DNA from: Gammaproteobacteria bacterium
Lineage (GTDB): Bacteria > Pseudomonadota > Gammaproteobacteria > Enterobacterales > Alteromonadaceae
Direction: 5' to 3'
Assembly: GCA_017302255.1 (NCBI GenBank)
Contig: JAFLDV010000001.1
Coordinates: 126,237-190,236 of the forward strand
DNA length: 64,000 nucleotides
Position numbers and translations under genes: made by a program. Of this stretch, positions 26,289-36,373 are shown one piece after another (within the stretch, counting starts at the first letter, position 1; each line of letters opens with the position of its first letter). The notes under the pieces are model-generated. The model worked only from the letters and a program-made list of their open reading frames with translations, was not told the origin of the DNA and did no database searches.

Positions 26289-26648
26289 ATGGGTTTGATT
26301 TCACAACTATTGATAGGTTTTGTCGCGCTACTGCACTTTTATATTTTAGTGTTGGAAATGTTTTTATGGACCAGCCCGAAGGGGCGCAAAGTTTTTGGTT
26401 TGACTGAAGAATTTGCTGAGCAGTCGAAAGTGCTAGCGGCAAACCAAGGCTTGTACAACGGCTTTCTCGCGGCAGGGTTAAGTTGGGCACTACTGCAAGG
26501 ATCCAGCGGAACTGCGACGGCGATTTTTTTCTTAAGTTGTGTGTTGGTGGCGGGTGTTTACGGTGGGATAACTGCAAAGCCGAAAATTCTGTTTATTCAA
26601 GCCATGCCAGCCGCAGTATCATTGCTAGCGATTTGGTTCGCCATTTAA
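26289..26648 (+). CDS. DUF1304-family small membrane protein
   Basis: 119 aa with 4 TM segments and the LHFYILVLEMFLW... pattern typical of DUF1304. Confidence 0.5.
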   Translation: MGLISQLLIGFVALLHFYILVLEMFLWTSPKGRKVFGLTEEFAEQSKVLAANQGLYNGFLAAGLSWALLQGSSGTATAIFFLSCVLVAGVYGGITAKPKILFIQAMPAAVSLLAIWFAI

Positions 26649-26755
26649 CAAAAATGCCGTTCCAACGAGCTCGCGAAATGATTCGCTAAGTCGTTTAGAA
26701 CGGCAATTTTTCTTGATGCTTCGAAGCGATAATCTGCTAACTGAGACGTTCGCGC

Positions 26756-27337
26756 TTAGAATCGATATTTTTCTGCACCAGGAATTGGCGCATCTTCTTC
26801 GTACACAACAACTTGCACATCGCGGTCACGATCTCGAACTTTCTTGCAGAATTCTGCTTTCTGGTTAGAGCCGATTTGTTTTGCTTCTCTGTTGCATGAC
26901 ATCAACTGTGCCTTCACGCCATATTTGGCGATATGTTGGTCGATGATTTTTTGCAGTTGTTCACGTTGCTCTGCAGTCAGCTTTGCCGTTAACCCGTCAT
27001 AGTTTTTTTGCCAGGTTGGTTCTCTTTGTTCAAGCGATACTGCCATCCACACTAAACCTTGCACCATATCTGGTTCGGTACCGGCACCAGCTAAGTAGTA
27101 TGAACCGACAATATTCTGTGCAACCTTTTCACCGTAACGCGCATATTGCAGCAGTACTGGGAATGCATCGGCATGACGGTTTTGCTGTGCTTGGCGCAGC
27201 GCGATAGTCAGTGGTGATTCGTATGCCAAGTTTTTCACTAACACTGTTTTGCCTGCAGCAAAAGCTGAAGTGCTAGAGAAAATTAATGCTGTTAAGCCCA
27301 TCATTAAAATTGAACGTTTCATGGTAAGTCCCTTCAT
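26756..27337 (-). CDS. periplasmic Sel1/TPR-like repeat protein
   Basis: Signal peptide MKRSILMMGLTALIFSSTSAFA. AQNIVGSYYLAGAGTEPDMVQGLVWMAVS Sel1-like repeat. Confidence 0.5.
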   Translation of the reverse strand: MKGLTMKRSILMMGLTALIFSSTSAFAAGKTVLVKNLAYESPLTIALRQAQQNRHADAFPVLLQYARYGEKVAQNIVGSYYLAGAGTEPDMVQGLVWMAVSLEQREPTWQKNYDGLTAKLTAEQREQLQKIIDQHIAKYGVKAQLMSCNREAKQIGSNQKAEFCKKVRDRDRDVQVVVYEEDAPIPGAEKYRF

Positions 27338-27748
27338 ACAGTTGATGAAGACATCCTAACTGAGGTTTGAGAGAAATAGTCATTTCATTGTTTAACGATT
27401 TGTAACAAGTAATATAAGGCATGGACTGAACGCTCTTCAGTGATTATGTAGAAGAATAACTAATTAACCAATTGAATTTAAATGATTTAATTGTTGGGTG
27501 CTTTATGGGTCATTCAGAAGGAACACTGCCACATCGCTGATATGCTTGTTACTGCCCTTACGGAACTTGATACATCAAGTTACATTTGGTGCACTAGTTT
27601 CCCAATGGGATAGCGCTATTTCTCAACTTTGCTTGGGATTTGGCGTCGGGATAGTTAGCAATCCTAGTTCATTTAAAATTCAGTCATTGCCTGTAGTTTG
27701 GTAGCCATTAATTTGCCACAAACAATTTAGCAATGTTAAGGAACTACA

Positions 27749-28549
27749 ATGAGCTTTATCTATCAAGCACTTAGCCGCCAATTTCGCTCTTCGCAAAGTG
27801 CTCGCGTTATGACAACAGCACTGACTGTTGTTGCTATGCTGTTTGGGCTTAATGGTTGTTCGAGTTATACAACTCCGGGCGCGGGCGTGCAGTTAACGCA
27901 ACTCGCCGATGCCGATATCAATGAATTGATGGCCAAGCAGCCCGCGGCGAAATTCCCTGCACGAATTGCTTTTACCCGAGTGCAAGCTTCAGGGTATTCG
28001 GCTTACGGTACTGGAAGTTATGGCAATGGAGCATTCAGCGTTGTTACATCGAGAGAAATGGAAAACGAAGCCGAATTTATGAAACTCGGCCAAATGGAAG
28101 GCGTGGCGGGTGTTGCGCCACTCAACCGAATTTTACTTCCCGCGCAATTGTTCTCGATTAAAGACTTACGACTCGCCGCGGCCCGTCTACAAACCGATAT
28201 GCTATTGGTGTATACCTTTGACACCAGCTTTCATGTGGGCTCCCAGCATTTCGCGCCACTCAACGCTATTGCCTTGGGGTTTCTAGAAAACAAAGAAATC
28301 ACGGTAACCACCACTGCATCAGCGGCATTATTTGATGTGCGCACCGAGTTTTTGTATGGCGTTGCTGAAAGCACTGCACAACAAAGTGGGATGTCTTCCG
28401 TGTGGAGCGAGGAAAGTGAAGTCGATGATTTACGGAAAAAAGCGGAGCAAGCTGCCTTTAAAAGTTTAGTGCCGGAAATGGCGAAGACTTGGCAGCGACT
28501 AGTGAAACAGTATCAAGTGAAGCCGCCATTAGCGGCAGCGCCACAATAA
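27749..28549 (+). CDS. hypothetical lipoprotein
   Basis: Lipobox LFGLNGCSS after hydrophobic stretch. True start may be the internal ATG near 27809. Confidence 0.45.
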   Translation: MSFIYQALSRQFRSSQSARVMTTALTVVAMLFGLNGCSSYTTPGAGVQLTQLADADINELMAKQPAAKFPARIAFTRVQASGYSAYGTGSYGNGAFSVVTSREMENEAEFMKLGQMEGVAGVAPLNRILLPAQLFSIKDLRLAAARLQTDMLLVYTFDTSFHVGSQHFAPLNAIALGFLENKEITVTTTASAALFDVRTEFLYGVAESTAQQSGMSSVWSEESEVDDLRKKAEQAAFKSLVPEMAKTWQRLVKQYQVKPPLAAAPQ

Positions 28550-28576
28550 AACTCTGCTTGCAAAGACTCAAAAAAA

Positions 28577-28609
28577 AGCCCACCGATGTTGCCATGGTGG
28601 GCTTTTTTT
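28577..28609. terminator. bidirectional rho-independent terminator
   Basis: AAAAAAAGCCCACCgatgttgccatGGTGGGCTTTTTTT between convergent genes (28549 and 28659). Confidence 0.8.
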
Positions 28610-28658
28610 GTGGTTTTGGCGTGTTGCTACAGGGTTTTAGCTGCCGCAACTTGCTGAT

Positions 28659-29555
28659 TTACATATCAATATATTGCGGCCAGCCCAGCAGTGGGTTTTG
28701 CAGCCCTTGTTTGTGCTCAAAGGCATCCAGTTTTTCTGGCGATGCATCTTCCAAGGCTAAACTGCGATATTTACGGGCAAACTCCAAGGTTTTTAGCATG
28801 GCTTTGCCAAAATTATCGCCCAAGTCTTGGCGAATTGCACTGGCGATGCCCGCCGGTAACTCCGCAAGCGCGGACTCGGTTTGTAGCATCAAATAATCGG
28901 CGCTAAACCAGCGGTCTTGCATTTCAATCTGGCGAATACGCTGCTTTAAATCCTGTTTCACTTTGCCATTACTGCAGATGGTGCGGTAAATAATCACCTC
29001 AGCCAACATACCTTCAAGGCTAAAGTGCTCAAACGGATCTAGTTGCGTGTGGTAGAAAAACGATTGTTTCACCACGGCAATCGCGTTGCGGCGATTAGAT
29101 TCAACCAACGCTTGCTGATATTGCTGTAAACCATGCCATTCTTCGGCATCTGGTGGGCTTGAAATATCACGCAGCAATTGCTCATCAACATCGCCGTATA
29201 ACGATTTGCGGCTGCCGGCTTTCGCGCTCACGGTGCTGAGCATATGCCAGCCTTTTTGAAATGGCTTGACCACGCCATCCGCGTTGTTGAGTAAACTCAG
29301 CGCTTTCGCTAAATCATTCCCCGACATTTCGCTCAGCCCCAAACTCACCACGCCGATAATGTCGTGCGCTGCTTGTTCGAGCAAATGCATTTTGTACTTG
29401 TTGTAAAACTTATCGGCAAACTTCAGGCTCATCAGCACTGCTTTATTTTTAATTTCAGCAAGTTGCACACTAGTAAGCAGCTGTTCGGCTTGGCCATAAG
29501 CCAATACTTGGCTAAAAAACGGCCCTTGATTTTGTTCGCGAACGACTAATTGCAT
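28659..29555 (-). CDS. hypothetical protein (298 aa), last gene of the J-domain module
   Basis: Coding-like composition. Start 11 nt after the upstream stop. No recognisable motif. Confidence 0.5.
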   Translation of the reverse strand: MQLVVREQNQGPFFSQVLAYGQAEQLLTSVQLAEIKNKAVLMSLKFADKFYNKYKMHLLEQAAHDIIGVVSLGLSEMSGNDLAKALSLLNNADGVVKPFQKGWHMLSTVSAKAGSRKSLYGDVDEQLLRDISSPPDAEEWHGLQQYQQALVESNRRNAIAVVKQSFFYHTQLDPFEHFSLEGMLAEVIIYRTICSNGKVKQDLKQRIRQIEMQDRWFSADYLMLQTESALAELPAGIASAIRQDLGDNFGKAMLKTLEFARKYRSLALEDASPEKLDAFEHKQGLQNPLLGWPQYIDM

Positions 29556-29566
29556 TTGCGGGTCCT

Positions 29567-30328
29567 TTAGTCCAGAAAGCTAAACATATCATCCACTTCG
29601 GCGTACTCATCAGTGGCCTGATTTTTCTCTTTGGCTTGCATAACGAGCTCAGTCGCAAACTTATTGATGATGTTTTCCCAGCCCGAGTTGTCGTTGCGCA
29701 CCAAACTCTTGATGGCTTGCTCAACTTCCGGGGTTAGCTGGCGAATCAGCGCCAACAAACTGCGTGGGTCGTCAAAACCTAAGCCATGCACTTCTTCATT
29801 TAAATGCCGCTCGGTGTAACTGACCGCTTCTTCTAAATCTTCCTCTTCTTCGTGCAATAAATCATGCACTTCGTCTTCGTCGTCCAGCACTTCGCCGCGA
29901 TAGATTTCGATGAAGGGAATAGATAAATAGAAGAGACCTGCCGCATCTTCAGCGATACAAGTTAAGATTTCTGCCTGTTTTTCTTCGCTCTCTTGCGTGC
30001 GAATTAGGTAGGTCAAAAAATCAAAAGTATGCTGTTTCAGCTCTTCCGCGTTATTTTTGATTTTCTCTTCCCAATACAGCGGTTGTTGGCAGACGATGTC
30101 GCGGATTTTCTCTGGCGTCATCAGTTCTGAAATAATCGATGGGAACGAAATATCGTGTTGGCTATTAATTTGCGTCAAGGTGACGATGTCAATTTGCTCA
30201 ATCACTTCAACGAGTTGTGCATCTGACATGGTGTTCGCGATGATTTCAAAACGTTTACTGGCTTGTTTAGGTTCAACAATCGCCAGTTCTTTGATTTCCG
30301 CAACGGTGATTTCGATTAGATTATTCAT
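29567..30328 (-). CDS. hypothetical highly acidic protein (253 aa)
   Basis: Asp/Glu-rich (DDEDEVHDLLHEEEEDLEE). Its ATG overlaps the upstream stop (TGATG). Confidence 0.5.
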   Translation of the reverse strand: MNNLIEITVAEIKELAIVEPKQASKRFEIIANTMSDAQLVEVIEQIDIVTLTQINSQHDISFPSIISELMTPEKIRDIVCQQPLYWEEKIKNNAEELKQHTFDFLTYLIRTQESEEKQAEILTCIAEDAAGLFYLSIPFIEIYRGEVLDDEDEVHDLLHEEEEDLEEAVSYTERHLNEEVHGLGFDDPRSLLALIRQLTPEVEQAIKSLVRNDNSGWENIINKFATELVMQAKEKNQATDEYAEVDDMFSFLD

Positions 30329-30894
30329 CAGCGATCCTCTCCTTTAAAGCGAACTTCGTCATATTGGTCGTCGTAACCATCTTCGTCGTCTTCATCGCGA
30401 CCTTCGTAGTCATCTTGGGCTTGGTCACGATCGTCGTAATCTTCTTCGCCATGCTCTTCATCCTGACGGTCGTCGGCATCTTTCGCGCTGCGCGCTGGGC
30501 CGTTACCTTGGGTTTCCAGCAGATACAGCACCGCACAAGCTTCAATTAATAAGTCTTGCGAGTAATCGCGGATTTTTTTCACCAATGGTAAATCGTCGTT
30601 GCTAAAGGCAACCGTGACTTTGAAATCGTCCCAAGCCGGCATGGTTTTGGTGTTGATCCAATGCGACCACTTGAGCTTGGCTTCTTTACTGAATTTCACC
30701 CGGCCAAATAACGCGACAGGTAAATATTCCGGCAAGCTTTCCAGCATCTCTGGATCGGCCATCAAAATGGTTTTCATTTTGCCAGTAAATTGCGCCAAGG
30801 CCTTTGGTGTTTCTGGGTCGTTGTAAGATTCAATGTTTTCATAAGCATCGGTTTTTAATTGATTTAACCGAGCAACATCCAGTTTTTTGGTCAT
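30328..30894 (-). CDS. hypothetical protein with poly-acidic C-terminal tail
   Basis: C-terminal 50 aa is almost entirely D/E/Y/R (DEEHGEEDYDDRDQAQDDYEGRDEDDEDGYDD). GAGG RBS before the ATG at 30894. The ORF-track start at 30924 would overlap the upstream gene. Confidence 0.5.
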   Translation of the reverse strand: MTKKLDVARLNQLKTDAYENIESYNDPETPKALAQFTGKMKTILMADPEMLESLPEYLPVALFGRVKFSKEAKLKWSHWINTKTMPAWDDFKVTVAFSNDDLPLVKKIRDYSQDLLIEACAVLYLLETQGNGPARSAKDADDRQDEEHGEEDYDDRDQAQDDYEGRDEDDEDGYDDQYDEVRFKGEDR

Positions 30895-30902
30895 GGAAAA
30901 CC

Positions 30903-31187
30903 TCAAGGATAAAATTGGTCCCACAGCTCTTTCATTGCTGCGGTTGGATCTGTGACGATGACGTTATTAAAGTCTTTGATAAATGCCGCTTTTTGCTTGG
31001 GATCTGACAGCACTTCATAGGCTTGTTTCACCCGCTGTAACTGCACTGCAGCATCGGCTTTTTCGTCTTCGGATAAGCCTAATAACTTATCTGGATGGTA
31101 CTTATTCGACCATCGTTTATAGGCTTTTTTAATTTCTTCTTCGGTGGCGCTGGCTTTAACCCCAAGCACCCGGAAATGGTTAATCAT
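30903..31187 (-). CDS. small J-domain (DnaJ-like) protein
   Basis: MINHFRVLGV...EEEIKKAYKRWSNKYHPDK with the HPD tripeptide and J-domain helix pattern. AGGA RBS before the ATG at 31187. The longer ORF from 31298 would add a hydrophobic N-terminus but lacks an RBS and runs through REP-like repeats. Confidence 0.65.
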   Translation of the reverse strand: MINHFRVLGVKASATEEEIKKAYKRWSNKYHPDKLLGLSEDEKADAAVQLQRVKQAYEVLSDPKQKAAFIKDFNNVIVTDPTAAMKELWDQFYP

Positions 31188-31340
31188 AGCAAATCCTGTC
31201 TTGCTGCGGACACGCTGTCGAACCGCTAAATGGCTGGTGAAAAACACAAATTTCACCGAGAAGCCGATAATAGCAGAAATCGAAGGCGGCAGAGTCATTG
31301 AAATTGGAATTGCGTCATAAACAGTATTAATAAAGGGGTG

Positions 31341-31380
31341 CAGAGTCGTTTGTTTCCCAAAATCAAAATCAACGACTCTG
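31341..31380. repeat. REP-like palindrome, family B (CAGAGTCGTT...AACGACTCTG)
   Basis: Perfect 10-bp stem with a 20-nt loop in the 231-bp gap between the SPFH and J-domain genes. A half copy GCAGAGTCATTGA lies at 31287-31299. A second full copy is at 36341-36373. Confidence 0.65.
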
Positions 31381-31418
31381 ACGCTTTAGCTTACCGATGG
31401 TTGGTGTTGCACTGGCCT

Positions 31419-32582
31419 TTAACTTGCGGCTTTACGATCGGTCAGTTTCACTAAGTCGTTCATCACGCCATCCAAGCCGCCGTAGACGTTTAGGTTCTGG
31501 ATGCGGGCGGTGATTTTTTCTAACACCTCCAGCTCTTTTAACCGTAACAGTACCGGGTTGCCTTCCATCACTTTGGCGGTGTTGTGCAATGAGCGAGTGG
31601 CTTGTGTTTCCTCTTGCCGTTTAATCAGATTCGCTTCCGCCAGTTTTTGCGCTTCGACCACTTGTGTCAGGATCGCTTTCATTTCACCTGGCAAAATAAT
31701 GTCACGTGCGCCCACGGAATGTAAGGCGATGCCAAATTTTTCCGCTTTACTACTGACGATGGTTGCCACTTGTTGATTGAGCAGATTTTTATCGACCAAC
31801 AGCTCGTCCAGCGTTTGTGTGCTGACTACGGTGCGCAACGCGAGCTGCAGCTCACGATACAAATAATCCTTCACATCAACCAGTTGCGAACGCACCTGTT
31901 CGGCATCAACAATTTGCCACATGGCAGATAAATTGACCCGCAGGCTGACCCGGTCTTTAGTCAGAATGTCTTGACCGTTGATTTCCATATTTTGTAAGCG
32001 TAAATCAAAGCTTTTTACCTGCAATTCCCGGCCGAACTTCCACCACAAGTGCAAGCCACTGCAAAGTTCGGCGTGAGTTTTGCCATTGCATAGTAAAAAG
32101 CCGGTGTGGCCTTCTGGTAAGGTGGTACTTAACACCGCTGGCAGTAAAGCTTTGAGCAACAATGGCTCTCGGCTTTGATGCAATAGCGCGGTCAACTCAC
32201 TTGGAACTTCAAACTTTTCAGCGATATCAATCAGCTGCAGTTGAATTGCTTGATGGCCAAGCCAATAAGCACCGCGCTGACCAGGCGCTTTGATATCTTT
32301 GAGGTTGGCATTTTCATAGACCAAGCCAACTTCGTGGGCGCCGGTCTGCCAGTGTTTGATATAAGGCGCAAACAGCTGCGGATAACGCTCAGCCAAAAAC
32401 AGCAGCTCGGTGCTGAGTTCTTGCTGTAATGGGTTATTGATTTGCACATTTTGCACGCTAAGTTGTTGCTGCCAATCCCAAAATGTGTAGACACCTGTTG
32501 GCAGAATTTTGTGTAATTGTTGGTTTTTGAACAACAGCACCAATTGACTGTCACTTACCGTGATTTTCTTTAAAAATTGCAT
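31419..32582 (-). CDS. SPFH/band-7 (stomatin/HflKC-like) domain protein with about 170-aa N-terminal extension
   Basis: C-terminal half matches SPFH-domain order: ...RVSLRVNLSAMWQIVDAEQV..., ...GARDIILPGEMKAILTQVVEAQKLAEANLIKRQEETQATRSL...VLLRLKELEVLEKI. AGGAGAAG RBS. Confidence 0.55.
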   Translation of the reverse strand: MQFLKKITVSDSQLVLLFKNQQLHKILPTGVYTFWDWQQQLSVQNVQINNPLQQELSTELLFLAERYPQLFAPYIKHWQTGAHEVGLVYENANLKDIKAPGQRGAYWLGHQAIQLQLIDIAEKFEVPSELTALLHQSREPLLLKALLPAVLSTTLPEGHTGFLLCNGKTHAELCSGLHLWWKFGRELQVKSFDLRLQNMEINGQDILTKDRVSLRVNLSAMWQIVDAEQVRSQLVDVKDYLYRELQLALRTVVSTQTLDELLVDKNLLNQQVATIVSSKAEKFGIALHSVGARDIILPGEMKAILTQVVEAQKLAEANLIKRQEETQATRSLHNTAKVMEGNPVLLRLKELEVLEKITARIQNLNVYGGLDGVMNDLVKLTDRKAAS

Positions 32583-32619: not shown

Positions 32620-32860
32620 ATTTTCAATAAAGTGGGGCTGTTGTCTTGTAATGGCGCATTTAACGTCAGGTAATGGGCTGGAAAACTACGGTAGTGCTGG
32701 TTTTATTAGAGCACTACAGTTTTCTGCGCATCACCGAGTGGTTCGCTGCGGCATTACTTGACTGGTTTCCTTTTTCAGCCATTTTCATCTTGGTTCATCC
32801 CCTGAACCGCCTTTACCCAGCCCCTAGTTTTTTGGTTTGGAACCCTCACAACTTACTTTT

Positions 32861-32926
32861 GCTTGTCGGAATCGAACCGACACCAACCATGGGAGTGGTT
32901 GCTCTACCAGTTGAGCTATCGCTGGT
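32861..32926 (-). ncRNA. partial tRNA-like element (D-arm plus short stem plus T-arm, no acceptor pairing)
   Basis: Minus-strand RNA GCGAUAGCUCAACUGGUAGAGC...GUCGGUUCGAUUCCGAC has a canonical D-loop and T-loop (GGTTCGATTCC), but the anticodon region is a stem with a 6-nt loop and no complementary acceptor strands exist. Confidence 0.4.
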
Positions 32927-32995
32927 TTCCCGCAAGGGATTCGAACCCTTATCTCCATCGAGATGGCGCTTTTCCAGTTAAGCTAACGGGAATTT
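32927..32995 (-). ncRNA. tRNA-mimic element (acceptor stem, D-arm, T-arm, encoded ACCA, anticodon arm replaced by mini-hairpin); Y-RNA/YrlA-like
   Basis: Minus-strand RNA UUCCCGU-UA-GCUUaacuggaaAAGC-g-CCAUCUCGAUGGAGAU-AAGGGuucgaauCCCUU-GCGGGAA-A-CCA. 7-bp acceptor stem (6 WC plus 1 GU), 4-bp D stem with a GG-containing loop, canonical T-arm, discriminator A plus CCA. The central stem has only a 4-nt loop, so no anticodon. Confidence 0.5.
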
Positions 32996-33227: not shown

Positions 33228-34454
33228 CTAGCCTTTGACACACAACACTTGCTTGAGCGTGTGCATGATTTCCACCAGGTCATTTTGGGCGGCCATGACT
33301 TGTTCAATAGGCTTATAGGCCGCTGGTGTCTCGTCTAACACCGCTTCATCTTGTCGACATTCAACACCTTGTAATGCTTCTAAATGCTCAGCCATGGAAA
33401 CGCGTTTTTTCGCTTCAGTCCGTGACATCACGCGCCCAGCACCATGACTGCAACTACAAAAACTTTCTTCATTGCCAAGACCACGCACAATGTAAGAACG
33501 CGCGCCCATGCTGCCTGGAATAATGCCTAGCTCACCTTTGCGCGCACTCACTGCGCCCTTGCGAGTGACCCATACATCTTTGCCGTAGTGATGTTCGAGC
33601 CGAATGTAATTGTGATGACAATTAATCGCCTCGACTTCGGCGGTGATTGGCAGTTTCAGCACATCACACATGGCTTTTAAGGTGCGTTGCATCATTACTG
33701 CACGGTTCGCTTTGGCGAAATCCTGCGCCCAAGCCACCGCTTCAACATAGTCCTGAAAATGCTCACTTCCTTCGCGCAAATACGCCAATTCTTGATCTGG
33801 CAATTGGATAAATTGCCGTTCCATATCCCGTTTCGCCTGTTCAATAAAGTGCGTGCCAATGCGATTGCCGACGCCACGTGAACCGCTGTGCAACATCACC
33901 CAGACCTGTTGGGTTTCGTCGATGCAGATCTCGATAAAATGATTTCCAGTACCGAGCGTGCCCAAGTGATTCAAATTGTTTGTGTTTTTCAAAAACGGGT
34001 GCTTCTCGCACAAAGCCGTAAAGCCAGCATCTAAAGTTGACCATGCATGTTGCACATCCGCTGGCGCATTGGACCAGGCGCCTTTATCACGCTGTCCGCG
34101 TAATTTTGGACCGCCACCATGAGGCACACAGCGCTCAATTTCATGACGCAGCGCAGTGAGTGAATCTGGCAGTTGCGACGCGGTTAAGTTGGTTTTTGCT
34201 GCCATCATGCCGCAGCCCAGATCCACACCAACTGCCGCCGGGATCACTGCATTTAGGGTTGGGATCACACTGCCGATAGTGGCGCCTTTGCCCAAATGTA
34301 CATCTGGCATCACCGCAATCCATTTGTGGATAAACGGCATTTGCGCCATGTTGACCACCTGTTGGCGGGCGTTTGGGTCGAAGGTCACTCCCTTCACCCA
34401 GGCTTTCACCATGGTTTGACCTGGTGCTTGGATAATTTCTGCATTACTGCTCAT
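33228..34454 (-). CDS. rtcB: RNA-splicing ligase RtcB
   Basis: 408 aa. Conserved RtcB metal/GTP-binding motifs (HxGxG-like VMLHSGSRGVGN, CSHGAGRVMSRTEAKK with the active-site His). RBS present. Confidence 0.9.
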   Translation of the reverse strand: MSSNAEIIQAPGQTMVKAWVKGVTFDPNARQQVVNMAQMPFIHKWIAVMPDVHLGKGATIGSVIPTLNAVIPAAVGVDLGCGMMAAKTNLTASQLPDSLTALRHEIERCVPHGGGPKLRGQRDKGAWSNAPADVQHAWSTLDAGFTALCEKHPFLKNTNNLNHLGTLGTGNHFIEICIDETQQVWVMLHSGSRGVGNRIGTHFIEQAKRDMERQFIQLPDQELAYLREGSEHFQDYVEAVAWAQDFAKANRAVMMQRTLKAMCDVLKLPITAEVEAINCHHNYIRLEHHYGKDVWVTRKGAVSARKGELGIIPGSMGARSYIVRGLGNEESFCSCSHGAGRVMSRTEAKKRVSMAEHLEALQGVECRQDEAVLDETPAAYKPIEQVMAAQNDLVEIMHTLKQVLCVKG

Positions 34455-34538: not shown

Positions 34539-34556
34539 TTGCAGATGCGGTGCCAA
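34539..34556 (-). promoter_or_regulatory. sigma-54 (RpoN) -24/-12 promoter for rtcB
   Basis: Minus strand reads TTGGCACcgcatcTGCAA, i.e. TGGCAC-N6-TGCA with exact consensus spacing (GG at -24, GC at -12). Sits about 85 nt upstream of the rtcB ATG and faces the divergent sigma-54 activator gene rtcR. Confidence 0.8.
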
Positions 34557-34691: not shown

Positions 34692-36329
34692 ATGAATAAT
34701 GTGCTGATTGGTGTTTTAGGGTCGCGACTGGACCATGCTGGCTTTAACAATAAACGTTGGGATCGTTGGCGCCCTTCGGTGTCACTGCTGATGCATCAAG
34801 AGTTGGTGATTGATCAGTATGTGCTGTTATACCTGCCAGATGATGAGCCTTTGTTAGCTATCACTTTGTTAGATATCGCGAAAATTTCGCCAGGCACTCA
34901 AGTACGGCCTATTTGCATGCAAATTGCCGATCCTTGGGACTTGGAGGAAGTGTATGGCGTGTTGCTGGATATCTCGTGGGAATTGAACTGGGATATCGAG
35001 CGCAATAACTATTACGTCAACATCACCACTGGCACGCATGTGACTCAGATCTGCCTGTTTTTGTTGAACGAAGCGCATTATCTGCCAGGCAAGCTTTTGC
35101 AGTTATCGCCAAGTAAGCAAAGCATCGCGGGCACCTACCATTTAATCGATTTGGATTTATCGCAATACGATCAAATTGCTTCGCGTTTTGCCCGGGAATC
35201 GGCGGATGCAGTTGAATTATTAAAAGGCGGCATCGCCACACGCAGTGGTACATTTAATGCGCTCATTACTCAGTTAGAGCAGGTTGCCGTGCGCAGCAAG
35301 GCGCCGATATTACTGCAAGGTCCGACGGGGGCAGGTAAATCGCAGCTGGCGAAACGGATATATCAGCTGAAAAAACACCGTGGGCAGCTGAATGGTCCCT
35401 TGGTGGAGGTCAACTGCGCGACGTTACGTGGTGATAATGCCATGTCTGCGCTATTTGGCCATGTCAAAGGCGCATTTACTGGCGCCAATCAATTGCGTTT
35501 GGGCTTGTTGCGCGAAGCTGATCAAGGCTTGTTGTTTCTCGATGAAATTGCCGAGCTCGGCTTAGACGAACAAGCCATGCTGCTGCGCGCTATTGAAGAG
35601 AAACAGTTTATGCCGCTTGGCGGCGATAAGCTGGTGAGTAGCGAGTTCCAGCTTATTGCCGGCAGTCATCAGGATTTATTTGCGCTGGTGCAAGCGGGAT
35701 TATTCCGTGAAGATTTGCTGGCGCGGATTAATCTGTGGACTTACCAATTACCGTCGTTGCGGGAACGACTCGAGGATCTAGAGCCGAATTTAACGCACGA
35801 GCTGGAGAAATTCAGCCGTGAGGCCGGGCATAAAGTCGATTTTAATCGGGCAGCGCGTCTGCAATATTTGCAATTTGCCCACACACCAGAAGCGTTATGG
35901 CGAGCAAATTTTCGTGATTTAAATTCCAGTATCACAAGGATGGCAACGCTCGCCGATGGCGGTCGGATCACCGAGGAGTTAGTGGCGCAAGAAATTGGCC
36001 GACTGCAACATAGCTGGCAACGTTTTTTGCCTGAAACTAGTTCTAGCAATTCCTTGAGCTCGAGCGATTGGCAAAGTGACTGCCACAGCATTTGTGCAGA
36101 ATTTTTGTCTGCAAGCCAAGTTCAAGATCTTGATTTATTTGATCAACTGCAGCTGGCGCAAGTGCTGCAAATCTGCAAGCAAGCGACCTCGTTGGCGGAA
36201 GCAGGCCGCACGCTATTTGCGCAAAGTCGGCTACGAAAAAGCGCCGCCAACGATAGTCATCGACTCAAACAGTATCTTGCGAAATACCAACTCGAGTTTC
36301 AGCAAATCAAAGCGGCAATGATGAGGTAA
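34692..36329 (+). CDS. rtcR: sigma-54-dependent transcriptional activator RtcR (CARF-like N-domain, AAA+ core, C-terminal HTH)
   Basis: Walker A GPTGAGKSQLAKRIY, sigma-54 interaction GAFTGA motif, ESELFGH-like ALFGHVKGAFTGA. N-terminal 180 aa matches the RtcR-specific sensor-domain layout. Divergent from rtcB. Confidence 0.85.
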   Translation: MNNVLIGVLGSRLDHAGFNNKRWDRWRPSVSLLMHQELVIDQYVLLYLPDDEPLLAITLLDIAKISPGTQVRPICMQIADPWDLEEVYGVLLDISWELNWDIERNNYYVNITTGTHVTQICLFLLNEAHYLPGKLLQLSPSKQSIAGTYHLIDLDLSQYDQIASRFARESADAVELLKGGIATRSGTFNALITQLEQVAVRSKAPILLQGPTGAGKSQLAKRIYQLKKHRGQLNGPLVEVNCATLRGDNAMSALFGHVKGAFTGANQLRLGLLREADQGLLFLDEIAELGLDEQAMLLRAIEEKQFMPLGGDKLVSSEFQLIAGSHQDLFALVQAGLFREDLLARINLWTYQLPSLRERLEDLEPNLTHELEKFSREAGHKVDFNRAARLQYLQFAHTPEALWRANFRDLNSSITRMATLADGGRITEELVAQEIGRLQHSWQRFLPETSSSNSLSSSDWQSDCHSICAEFLSASQVQDLDLFDQLQLAQVLQICKQATSLAEAGRTLFAQSRLRKSAANDSHRLKQYLAKYQLEFQQIKAAMMR

Positions 36330-36340
36330 GCGATGGGGGC

Positions 36341-36373
36341 AGAGTCATTGATTGTTTGGGATCAACGACTCTA
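36341..36373. repeat. REP-like palindrome, family B, second copy (between convergent rtcR and amidohydrolase genes)
   Basis: GGGGGCAGAGTCATTGATtgtttgggATCAACGACTCTAACC, 11/12-bp stem. Shares the GGGkGCAGAGTC...CAACGACTCTrAC frame with 31335-31382. Confidence 0.6.

Follow-up and report, generated by a model that had tools for sequence, protein, structure and literature searches.

The atcJABC system has been characterised in Shewanella oneidensis MR-1, where the phenotype is cold sensitivity and the published operon comprises four genes (Maillot et al. 2019, PMC6715715). Experimental papers on it span 2019 to 2026; bioRxiv 10.64898/2026.09.07.749886 describes the binding of AtcB to RNA polymerase (RNAP), the residues D37/D60 and W89, and how the system is distributed. 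As in class C J-domain adaptor systems encoded in operons, HscB-IscU-HscA among them, a short dedicated J protein is encoded beside its own client or adaptor and directs Hsp70, but the Atc client is an RNAP-binding protein complex instead of an Fe-S scaffold, and the general DnaK is used with no dedicated Hsp70. Another close described system is the association of RtcB, a Band-7 protein and b7a-tRNA, which bioRxiv 10.1101/312249 credits to Burroughs and Aravind (2016). In P. aeruginosa, PaFlo8 sits within the rtc locus, and its deletion was without phenotype in the assays reported (PMC13086221).

In the window (the whole 64,000-nt stretch analysed), these two units, both already described, were found side by side (Table 1). 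With a probability of about 0.93, the region consists of the atcJABC cold-adaptation operon of a Rheinheimera-like gammaproteobacterium and a separate SPFH gene of an Rtc RNA-repair unit. The sequence-only reading had combined five minus-strand ORFs into one module belonging to no described system; all five ORFs, and the junctions reported between them, were present, and the main yield of the present analysis is their correct annotation, i.e. the labels atcJ, atcA, atcB and atcC, and the grouping of the SPFH gene with the rtc locus.

Table 1. Coordinates of the features in the window, in order of position
Feature	Position	Strand	Description
Bidirectional intrinsic terminator	28570-28609	both	Common to atcC and a convergent 266-aa gene
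atcC	28659-29555	minus	298 aa, pI 6.0; putative adaptor for the AtcJ C-terminus and AtcB, by orthology
atcB	29567-30328	minus	253 aa, pI 4.28; putative RNAP-binding component, by orthology
atcA	30328-30894	minus	188 aa, pI 4.37; globular N-terminal part and Asp/Glu/Tyr-rich C-terminal tail
atcJ	30903-31187	minus	94 aa, class C J-domain protein; HPD 31-33, C-terminal PX7W 81-89
Predicted atc promoter	31267-31275	minus	Extended -10 TGCTATTAT inside the conserved TTCTGCTATNAT motif; 79 nt 5' of the atcJ ATG
Right half-site of palindromic element	31288-31304		Beside copy 1
Palindromic element, copy 1	31342-31379		Between the SPFH stop and the predicted atc promoter
SPFH/Band-7 ("slipin family") gene	31419-32582	minus	387 aa
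Two tandem tRNA-like elements	32926-32992 and 32857-32923	minus	Between rtcB and the SPFH gene
rtcB, RNA ligase gene	33228-34454	minus	Pfam RtcB 434.9 bits
Sigma-54-type promoter-like site	34540-34555	minus	TGGCACCGCATCTGCA; 86 nt upstream of rtcB
rtcR, divergent sigma-54 activator	34692-36329	plus	Pfam RtcR 221.7 bits, Sigma54_activat 157.1 bits
Palindromic element, copy 2	36341-36372		Just past the rtcR stop

Profile searches identified the four genes as atcJABC, overturning the view that no described system matched, and all four products passed the cut-offs of NCBIfam equivalog models: AtcJ, NF050028 (180.1 bits, cut-off 150); AtcA, NF047888 (274.7 bits, cut-off 200); AtcB, NF047889 (471.2 bits, cut-off 440); and AtcC, NF047890 (482.9 bits, cut-off 370), the last over its full length (residues 1-298). 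Newer Pfam families also matched the identical genes, namely PF27445 (AtcA, a precomputed match) for atcA and AtcB_N and AtcB_C for atcB, and the SPFH and J domains that had been recognised from the letters alone were recovered as Pfam Band_7 (88.9 bits) and DnaJ (67.7 bits). The HPD of the J protein was likewise confirmed, as was the Asp/Glu/Tyr tail of the 188-aa protein, whose last ~50 residues are rich in these residues by composition. Of the three proteins described as acidic, AtcA and AtcB are strongly so but AtcC is not, as judged from their pI values.

On the basis of sequence, the four genes are the orthologues of S. oneidensis SO_1850, SO_1849, SO_1848 and SO_1846, respectively. The two operons share 1) gene order and tight coupling, 2) an AtcJ of 94 aa and an AtcC of 298 aa, 3) the HPD tripeptide (31-33), W89 within PX7W (PTAAMKELW at AtcJ 81-89 here) and the AtcB Asp pair, D36/D59 here aligning with D37/D60 of the Shewanella xiamenensis orthologue and corresponding to D37/D60 of S. 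oneidensis, and 4) an acidic disordered AtcA tail, judged here from composition. They differ in host genus and in protein sequence, Shewanella Atc orthologues being approximately 60-74% identical to the proteins here, and atcJ and atcA are separated by 8 nt in the window versus 120 bp in S. oneidensis; a gap of 8-24 bp is the majority form (PMC6715715). No functional distinction between the two would be predicted from these comparisons. The remaining junctions were as first described, namely a TGATG overlap of the atcA stop and atcB start, and 11 nt between atcB and atcC. As the coupled starts had suggested, atcJABC is a single translationally coupled unit. The ORF list has the J gene with 131 aa, from a start that was rejected as an artefact: in 77 of 77 loci the start codon giving 94 aa is conserved, with a Shine-Dalgarno sequence of the AGGA type ahead of it, and an in-frame upstream ATG adding at least 20 residues was found in only 7 of them.

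Orthologues of atcC were recovered from 80 genomes of other species, with AtcC identities of 58-98%; of the four Atc proteins, AtcB is the best conserved (72-97%). Gene neighbourhoods, which had been proposed as a check on the module, kept atcJ-atcA-atcB-atcC in this order on one strand in all 77 related loci that extend far enough, and the conserved unit did not include the SPFH gene. In 75 of the 77 loci, representing four genera, the TTCTGCTATNAT motif with its extended -10 was located upstream of atcJ at a distance of 35-101 nt; a single outlier lay at 232 nt, and the background rate is 0.007 per 250 nt. This predicted promoter motif is kept whatever the upstream gene, and it fits the reported constitutive expression of atc; it is a small addition to the two Atc papers (PMC6715715 and bioRxiv 10.64898/2026.09.07.749886), which make no mention of a promoter. 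At the other end, the strong terminator noticed earlier was verified: it has the form A7-GCCCACC-loop-GGTGGGC-T8, and the 101-nt stretch containing it (28560-28660) folds with -38.2 kcal/mol (z = -5.08 versus shuffles). The segment from 28570 to 31275 is thus predicted to be one self-contained transcription unit.

Since experiments have been performed only in other organisms, the function of Atc here is taken from orthology, at 60-74% identity to the Shewanella proteins. By analogy with the Shewanella work, the HPD of AtcJ would bind DnaK and stimulate its ATPase, and the 21-residue C-terminal peptide of AtcJ (PX7W, with W89 essential) would bind AtcC with nanomolar affinity; AtcC would in turn bind AtcB, and AtcB would bind RNAP via its two conserved Asp residues. 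Coupling of DnaK to RNAP through Atc would be required for growth in the cold, for which AtcA with its acidic tail would be dispensable. The earlier suggestion that a stand-alone J domain recruits DnaK to partners encoded downstream is the published mechanism of AtcJ (PMC6715715).

The acidity of AtcA and AtcB might also be read in another way, i.e. as that of nucleic-acid mimics in an anti-phage defence or toxin-antitoxin-like system, and such a reading would accommodate both the toxicity of overproduced AtcB, which arises because RNAP is blocked (bioRxiv 10.64898/2026.09.07.749886), and the variable, palindrome-bracketed slot adjoining the operon. However, none of the five proteins matched a PADLOC model at E <= 0.001, which also leaves the idea of a defence complex without a match, and the published phenotype is cold sensitivity. 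In addition, no recovered genome of Rheinheimera, Alishewanella or Arsukibacterium lacked atc, a core-genome behaviour and not the patchy one of a defence island, and it is inherited vertically in congruence with the species tree (bioRxiv 10.64898/2026.09.07.749886). A defence or toxin-antitoxin role is, in our judgement, extremely improbable.

The SPFH gene belongs, outside atc, to the Rtc RNA-repair unit as the Band-7 part of rtcR / rtcB - tRNA-like - Band-7. The homologue adjoined rtcR/rtcB in 42 of the 53 SPFH-homologue loci counted as informative, i.e. those with 2 kb or more of sequence upstream. The arrangement resembles the RtcB/Band-7/b7a-tRNA association in having a divergent rtcR followed by rtcB, one or two tRNA-like elements and a Band-7 protein of ~387 aa on one strand, and differs from it in that rtcA was not found among these genes or next to them in the window and that the tRNA-like element is present in two tandem copies. 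This pair scored 47.1 and 30.5 bits with the Rfam tRNA model (hits at 32865-32992, minus strand) and 63.3 and 59.7 bits with a custom model, R1, and ARAGORN did not call the elements at 32857-32992 as tRNA; they match the described "b7a-tRNA". At 66 of 68 SPFH loci, including some without rtcB, R1 detected tRNA-like elements in the ~600 bp preceding the SPFH gene, and this tight pairing, extending to rtcB-less loci, is a second small addition.

The N-terminus of the SPFH protein, previously regarded as unique, proved in an alignment to be conserved across the ~387-aa slipin family. No transmembrane or hydrophobic segment was predicted in the protein (maximal Kyte-Doolittle value over 19 residues, 1.03). 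Such a protein would lack the membrane anchor of an HflK/HflC modulator of FtsH, and this assignment was rejected, also on scores of 27.2 against a cut-off of 159.4 (TIGR01933) and 21.5 against 134.4 (TIGR01932). The sigma-54-type site upstream of rtcB has one mismatch to TGGCAC-N5-TTGCW; it is a consensus match only, and matches with up to two mismatches are no commoner in the window than expected by chance. Control by RtcR, proposed earlier for all five genes, is plausible for the SPFH gene. For atc, a shared RtcR regulon is unsupported, because the operon has its own conserved predicted promoter and none of 80 atc loci lies beside rtcB, which answers in the negative the earlier question of whether the genes always neighbour it.

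The SPFH-atcJ gap of 231 nt had been described as containing REP-like hairpins; one hairpin was found, neither several nor a generic REP, and it forms a palindromic element of which a second copy lies past rtcR. The two copies bracket the rtcR-rtcB-tRNA-like-SPFH block, and the same element flanks a different gene block in another locus (L001). The T-tract after the gap hairpin (CACCCCTTTATT) is weak, so that some read-through from SPFH/rtcB into atcJ is possible.

Could the five genes nevertheless act together, for example with SPFH as a scaffold organising the DnaK-recruiting complex and with co-regulation of all by RtcR along with rtcB? They lie on one strand, both this strain and near-identical relatives have the SPFH gene directly 5' of atcJ, and the hairpin between them is not a canonical strong terminator. 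Against this, SPFH was missing at 80 of 80 atc loci of other species, including the nearest one (98% AtcC identity), and homologues of RtcB and RtcR were likewise found at none of these 80; conversely, among the 53 informative SPFH-homologue loci only the window's own strain had atc, SPFH loci elsewhere having no atc genes. In a near-identical strain (locus L085), two unrelated genes on the opposite strand are located between SPFH and atcJ. The predicted promoter motif of atcJ, conserved and independent of the upstream gene, and the four-gene composition of the published operon (PMC6715715) also speak against a five-gene unit. By these neighbourhood statistics the idea is already largely refuted, and we regard it as very improbable.

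Two separate units thus remain the preferred reading, and the adjacency of Rtc/SPFH and atc is specific to this lineage, in which a variable slot lies beside the predicted atc promoter. It may be imagined that the slot is a cassette-exchange site and that transcription of the RtcR-controlled rtcB-tRNA-like-SPFH unit, induced by RNA damage, reads through the weak hairpin into atcJABC, coupling RNA repair to DnaK-dependent modulation of RNAP; we consider this extension very improbable. The palindrome-bounded variable slot carrying the Rtc/SPFH block is itself a further small addition.

Five open reading frames were found by ORF listing on the minus strand at the positions proposed for an uncharacterised five-gene module, separated in order by gaps of 231 nt and 8 nt, a TGATG overlap and a gap of 11 nt. 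The 94-aa second product has HPD at residues 31–33, and the C-terminal end of the 188-aa product is an Asp/Glu/Tyr-rich tail. Three acidic proteins had been claimed; two are strongly so (pI 4.37 and 4.28), whereas the third has a pI of 6.0. Pfam matched the first protein to Band_7 and the second to DnaJ; the other three had no significant match, a DUF6154 hit on AtcC (17.2 bits versus a cut-off of 27) being taken as chance. PADLOC defence-system models matched none of the five proteins. With NCBIfam models of the equivalog type, which have curated cut-offs, all four genes downstream of the SPFH gene scored above the thresholds for AtcJ, AtcA, AtcB and AtcC, respectively, and precomputed matches to the newer Pfam families PF27445 (AtcA), PF27486 (AtcB_N) and PF27450 (AtcB_C) were available for identical genes on public contigs.

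Features of the atc and Rtc/SPFH region and of two related loci (window coordinates unless stated)
Feature	Coordinates	Strand	Detail
Secreted-looking protein gene	26756–27337	(-)	193 aa
Putative lipoprotein gene	27749–28549	(+)	266 aa
Terminator 3′ of atcC	28570–28609		A7-GCCCACC...GGTGGGC-T8
atcC	28659–29555	(-)	NCBIfam NF047890, 482.9 bits (cut-off 370)
atcB	29567–30328	(-)	NCBIfam NF047889, 471.2 bits (cut-off 440)
atcA	30328–30894	(-)	NCBIfam NF047888, 274.7 bits (cut-off 200)
atcJ	30903–31187	(-)	NCBIfam NF050028, 180.1 bits (cut-off 150)
Predicted atc extended -10	31267–31275	(-)	TGCTATTAT
Palindrome half-site	31288–31304		abuts predicted atc promoter
Palindrome copies	31342–31379; 36341–36372
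SPFH gene	31419–32582	(-)
tRNA-like elements	32857–32992	(-)	Rfam tRNA model
rtcB	33228–34454	(-)
Sigma-54-type site	34540–34555	(-)	TGGCACCGCATCTGCA
rtcR	34692–36329	(+)
Palindrome copies, L001	3361–3393; 8230–8262		nearest related genome
Palindromic element, L085	1482–1525; 4068–4090		near-identical strain

In Shewanella oneidensis, the atcJABC operon begins with atcJ (SO_1850; Maillot et al. 2019, PMC6715715). The atcJ product is a class C J-domain protein of 94 aa with HPD at 31–33 that stimulates the DnaK ATPase and binds AtcC through a 21-residue C-terminal extension, while AtcC binds AtcB; removing atcJ, atcB or atcC, though not atcA, abolished growth at 7 °C (PMC6715715). According to a 2026 preprint (10.64898/2026.09.07.749886), AtcC binding needs W89 of a PX7W motif, AtcB contacts RNA polymerase via D37 and D60, and the operon, whose gene order never varies, is present in 294 reference proteomes, the majority from aquatic Beta- and Gammaproteobacteria. 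Residues 81–89 of the window AtcJ (PTAAMKELW) form the PX7W motif with W89 present, and D36 and D59 of its AtcB were aligned with D37 and D60 of a Shewanella orthologue. A sequence search of the PDB returned no solved structure of AtcB or AtcC.

When one genome per species was scanned, 80 atcC loci were recovered, in Rheinheimera, Alishewanella, Arsukibacterium and Shewanella, and tblastn placed atcJ, atcA, atcB and atcC in this order on one strand in all 77 loci that reached far enough. The window proteins were about 60–74% identical to their Shewanella counterparts; AtcB was the most conserved of the four and AtcA the least, a ranking that matches the phylogenetic analysis in the preprint (10.64898/2026.09.07.749886). 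Since the closest genome is a Rheinheimera-like MAG (AtcC identity 98%), the host organism is Rheinheimera-like. None of the 80 loci had an SPFH, RtcB or RtcR homologue. The conserved unit here is atcJABC, an already characterised system, and the module that the sequence-only reading had considered unassignable is thereby refuted on that reading's own terms. In 77 of 77 loci, the 94-aa AtcJ starts at the same conserved ATG, with an AGGA-type Shine-Dalgarno before it. A 131-aa version of the J gene (ATG at 31298) lacks a Shine-Dalgarno and was rejected as an artefact; an upstream in-frame ATG adding at least 20 residues occurred in only 7 of the 77 orthologues.

The SPFH gene is part of a different, already described module. 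Its family, named "slipin family protein" at NCBI, is widespread and about 387 aa long, and assignment to HflK/HflC was rejected, with scores far below the cut-offs and no transmembrane or hydrophobic segment. The exact protein was found on 13 contigs, all of the same lineage; one of these contigs, L085, has two Lcl_C genes on the opposite strand between it and atcJ. In three of four contexts looked up, rtcR and rtcB preceded the SPFH homologue at a distance of about 600 bp, and atc genes were lacking. A metagenome scan provided 80 further loci. Together with the four, 53 had at least 2 kb upstream, of which 31 carried a same-strand upstream rtcB and 11 the order rtcR-SPFH-rtcB, and atc genes stood beside the homologue only in the window's own strain.

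The gap between rtcB and the SPFH gene gave Rfam tRNA-like matches of 47.1 and 30.5 bits, in which ARAGORN called no tRNA, and Rfam detected similar elements in other SPFH loci. In 66 of 68 loci, a covariance model built on them found one to three tandem same-strand copies, located about 250–600 bp upstream of the SPFH gene. They were also kept in loci without rtcB, such as that of Methylomicrobium agile (L087); therefore, the tightest linkage is between the tRNA-like RNA and Band-7, not between Band-7 and rtcB. The window's arrangement fits an association of RtcB, Band-7 and "b7a-tRNA" that bioRxiv 10.1101/312249 credits to Burroughs and Aravind (2016). PaFlo8 of P. aeruginosa, whose deletion had no phenotype in the reported assays, lies within the rtc locus (PMC13086221), a placement like that of the window SPFH gene. 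A sigma-54-type site was located 86 nt 5′ of rtcB, facing the divergent rtcR, and no rtcA was seen in the rtc locus of the window.

A palindrome (AGAGTCRTT-N-AAYGACTCT) has exactly two copies in the 64-kb window, none being expected by chance, and these flank the block of rtcR, rtcB, tRNA-like elements and SPFH gene. The nearest genome (L001) carries two identical 46-bp copies of this palindrome, which flank an alternative block of three unrelated genes in the same slot, between an amidohydrolase gene and atcJ, and in L085 a further two-gene block lies between hairpin and half-site. By eye, the palindrome showed no resemblance to the consensus of an integron attC or XerCD dif. The slot looks like a cassette slot with REP-like palindromes at its bounds. 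On these grounds, the adjacency of atc and Rtc is an accident of this variable slot, specific to the lineage; read-through from the Rtc/SPFH side into atcJ may occur, but the comparative evidence gave it no support.

Alignment of the upstream regions revealed a conserved extended -10, TTCTG(C/T)TA(T/G)NAT, shared by Rheinheimera, Alishewanella, Arsukibacterium and Shewanella and located 35–101 nt 5′ of the atcJ ATG in 75 of 77 loci (one outlier, 232 nt), with a background rate of 0.007 per 250 nt. The predicted site implies a putative atcJ 5′ UTR of about 70 nt. A generic sigma-70 scan gave fewer sites than in shuffles and overlooked this element, and neither PMC6715715 nor the preprint (10.64898/2026.09.07.749886) mentions a promoter for atc. 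Similarly, the generic terminator scan overlooked the real terminator because its loop exceeds 8 nt; it was found by folding (101-nt stretch, -38.2 kcal/mol, z = -5.1). An Rfam Thr_leader match at 28526–28611 (32.4 bits versus a gathering score of 55) was taken as chance, since it falls below the gathering score and overlaps the hairpin and T-run of the terminator. The predicted promoter, together with the terminator, makes atcJABC a self-contained unit.

It was also noticed that about 2 kb of the window (26611–28573) is missing in L001, which has 126 bp there instead. This region forms another variable slot, on the opposite flank of the atc operon, and contains the genes for the 266-aa and 193-aa products, neither of which gave a Pfam match. 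The operon itself (window 28573–31301, L001 8252–10991) is 91% identical in nucleotide sequence versus 73–81% for the flanking syntenic genes, and third-codon-position identity is 73–83% for the atc genes and 50–67% for the flanking genes; codon constraint is one possible cause of this difference, and a recent recombination event covering exactly the operon is another.
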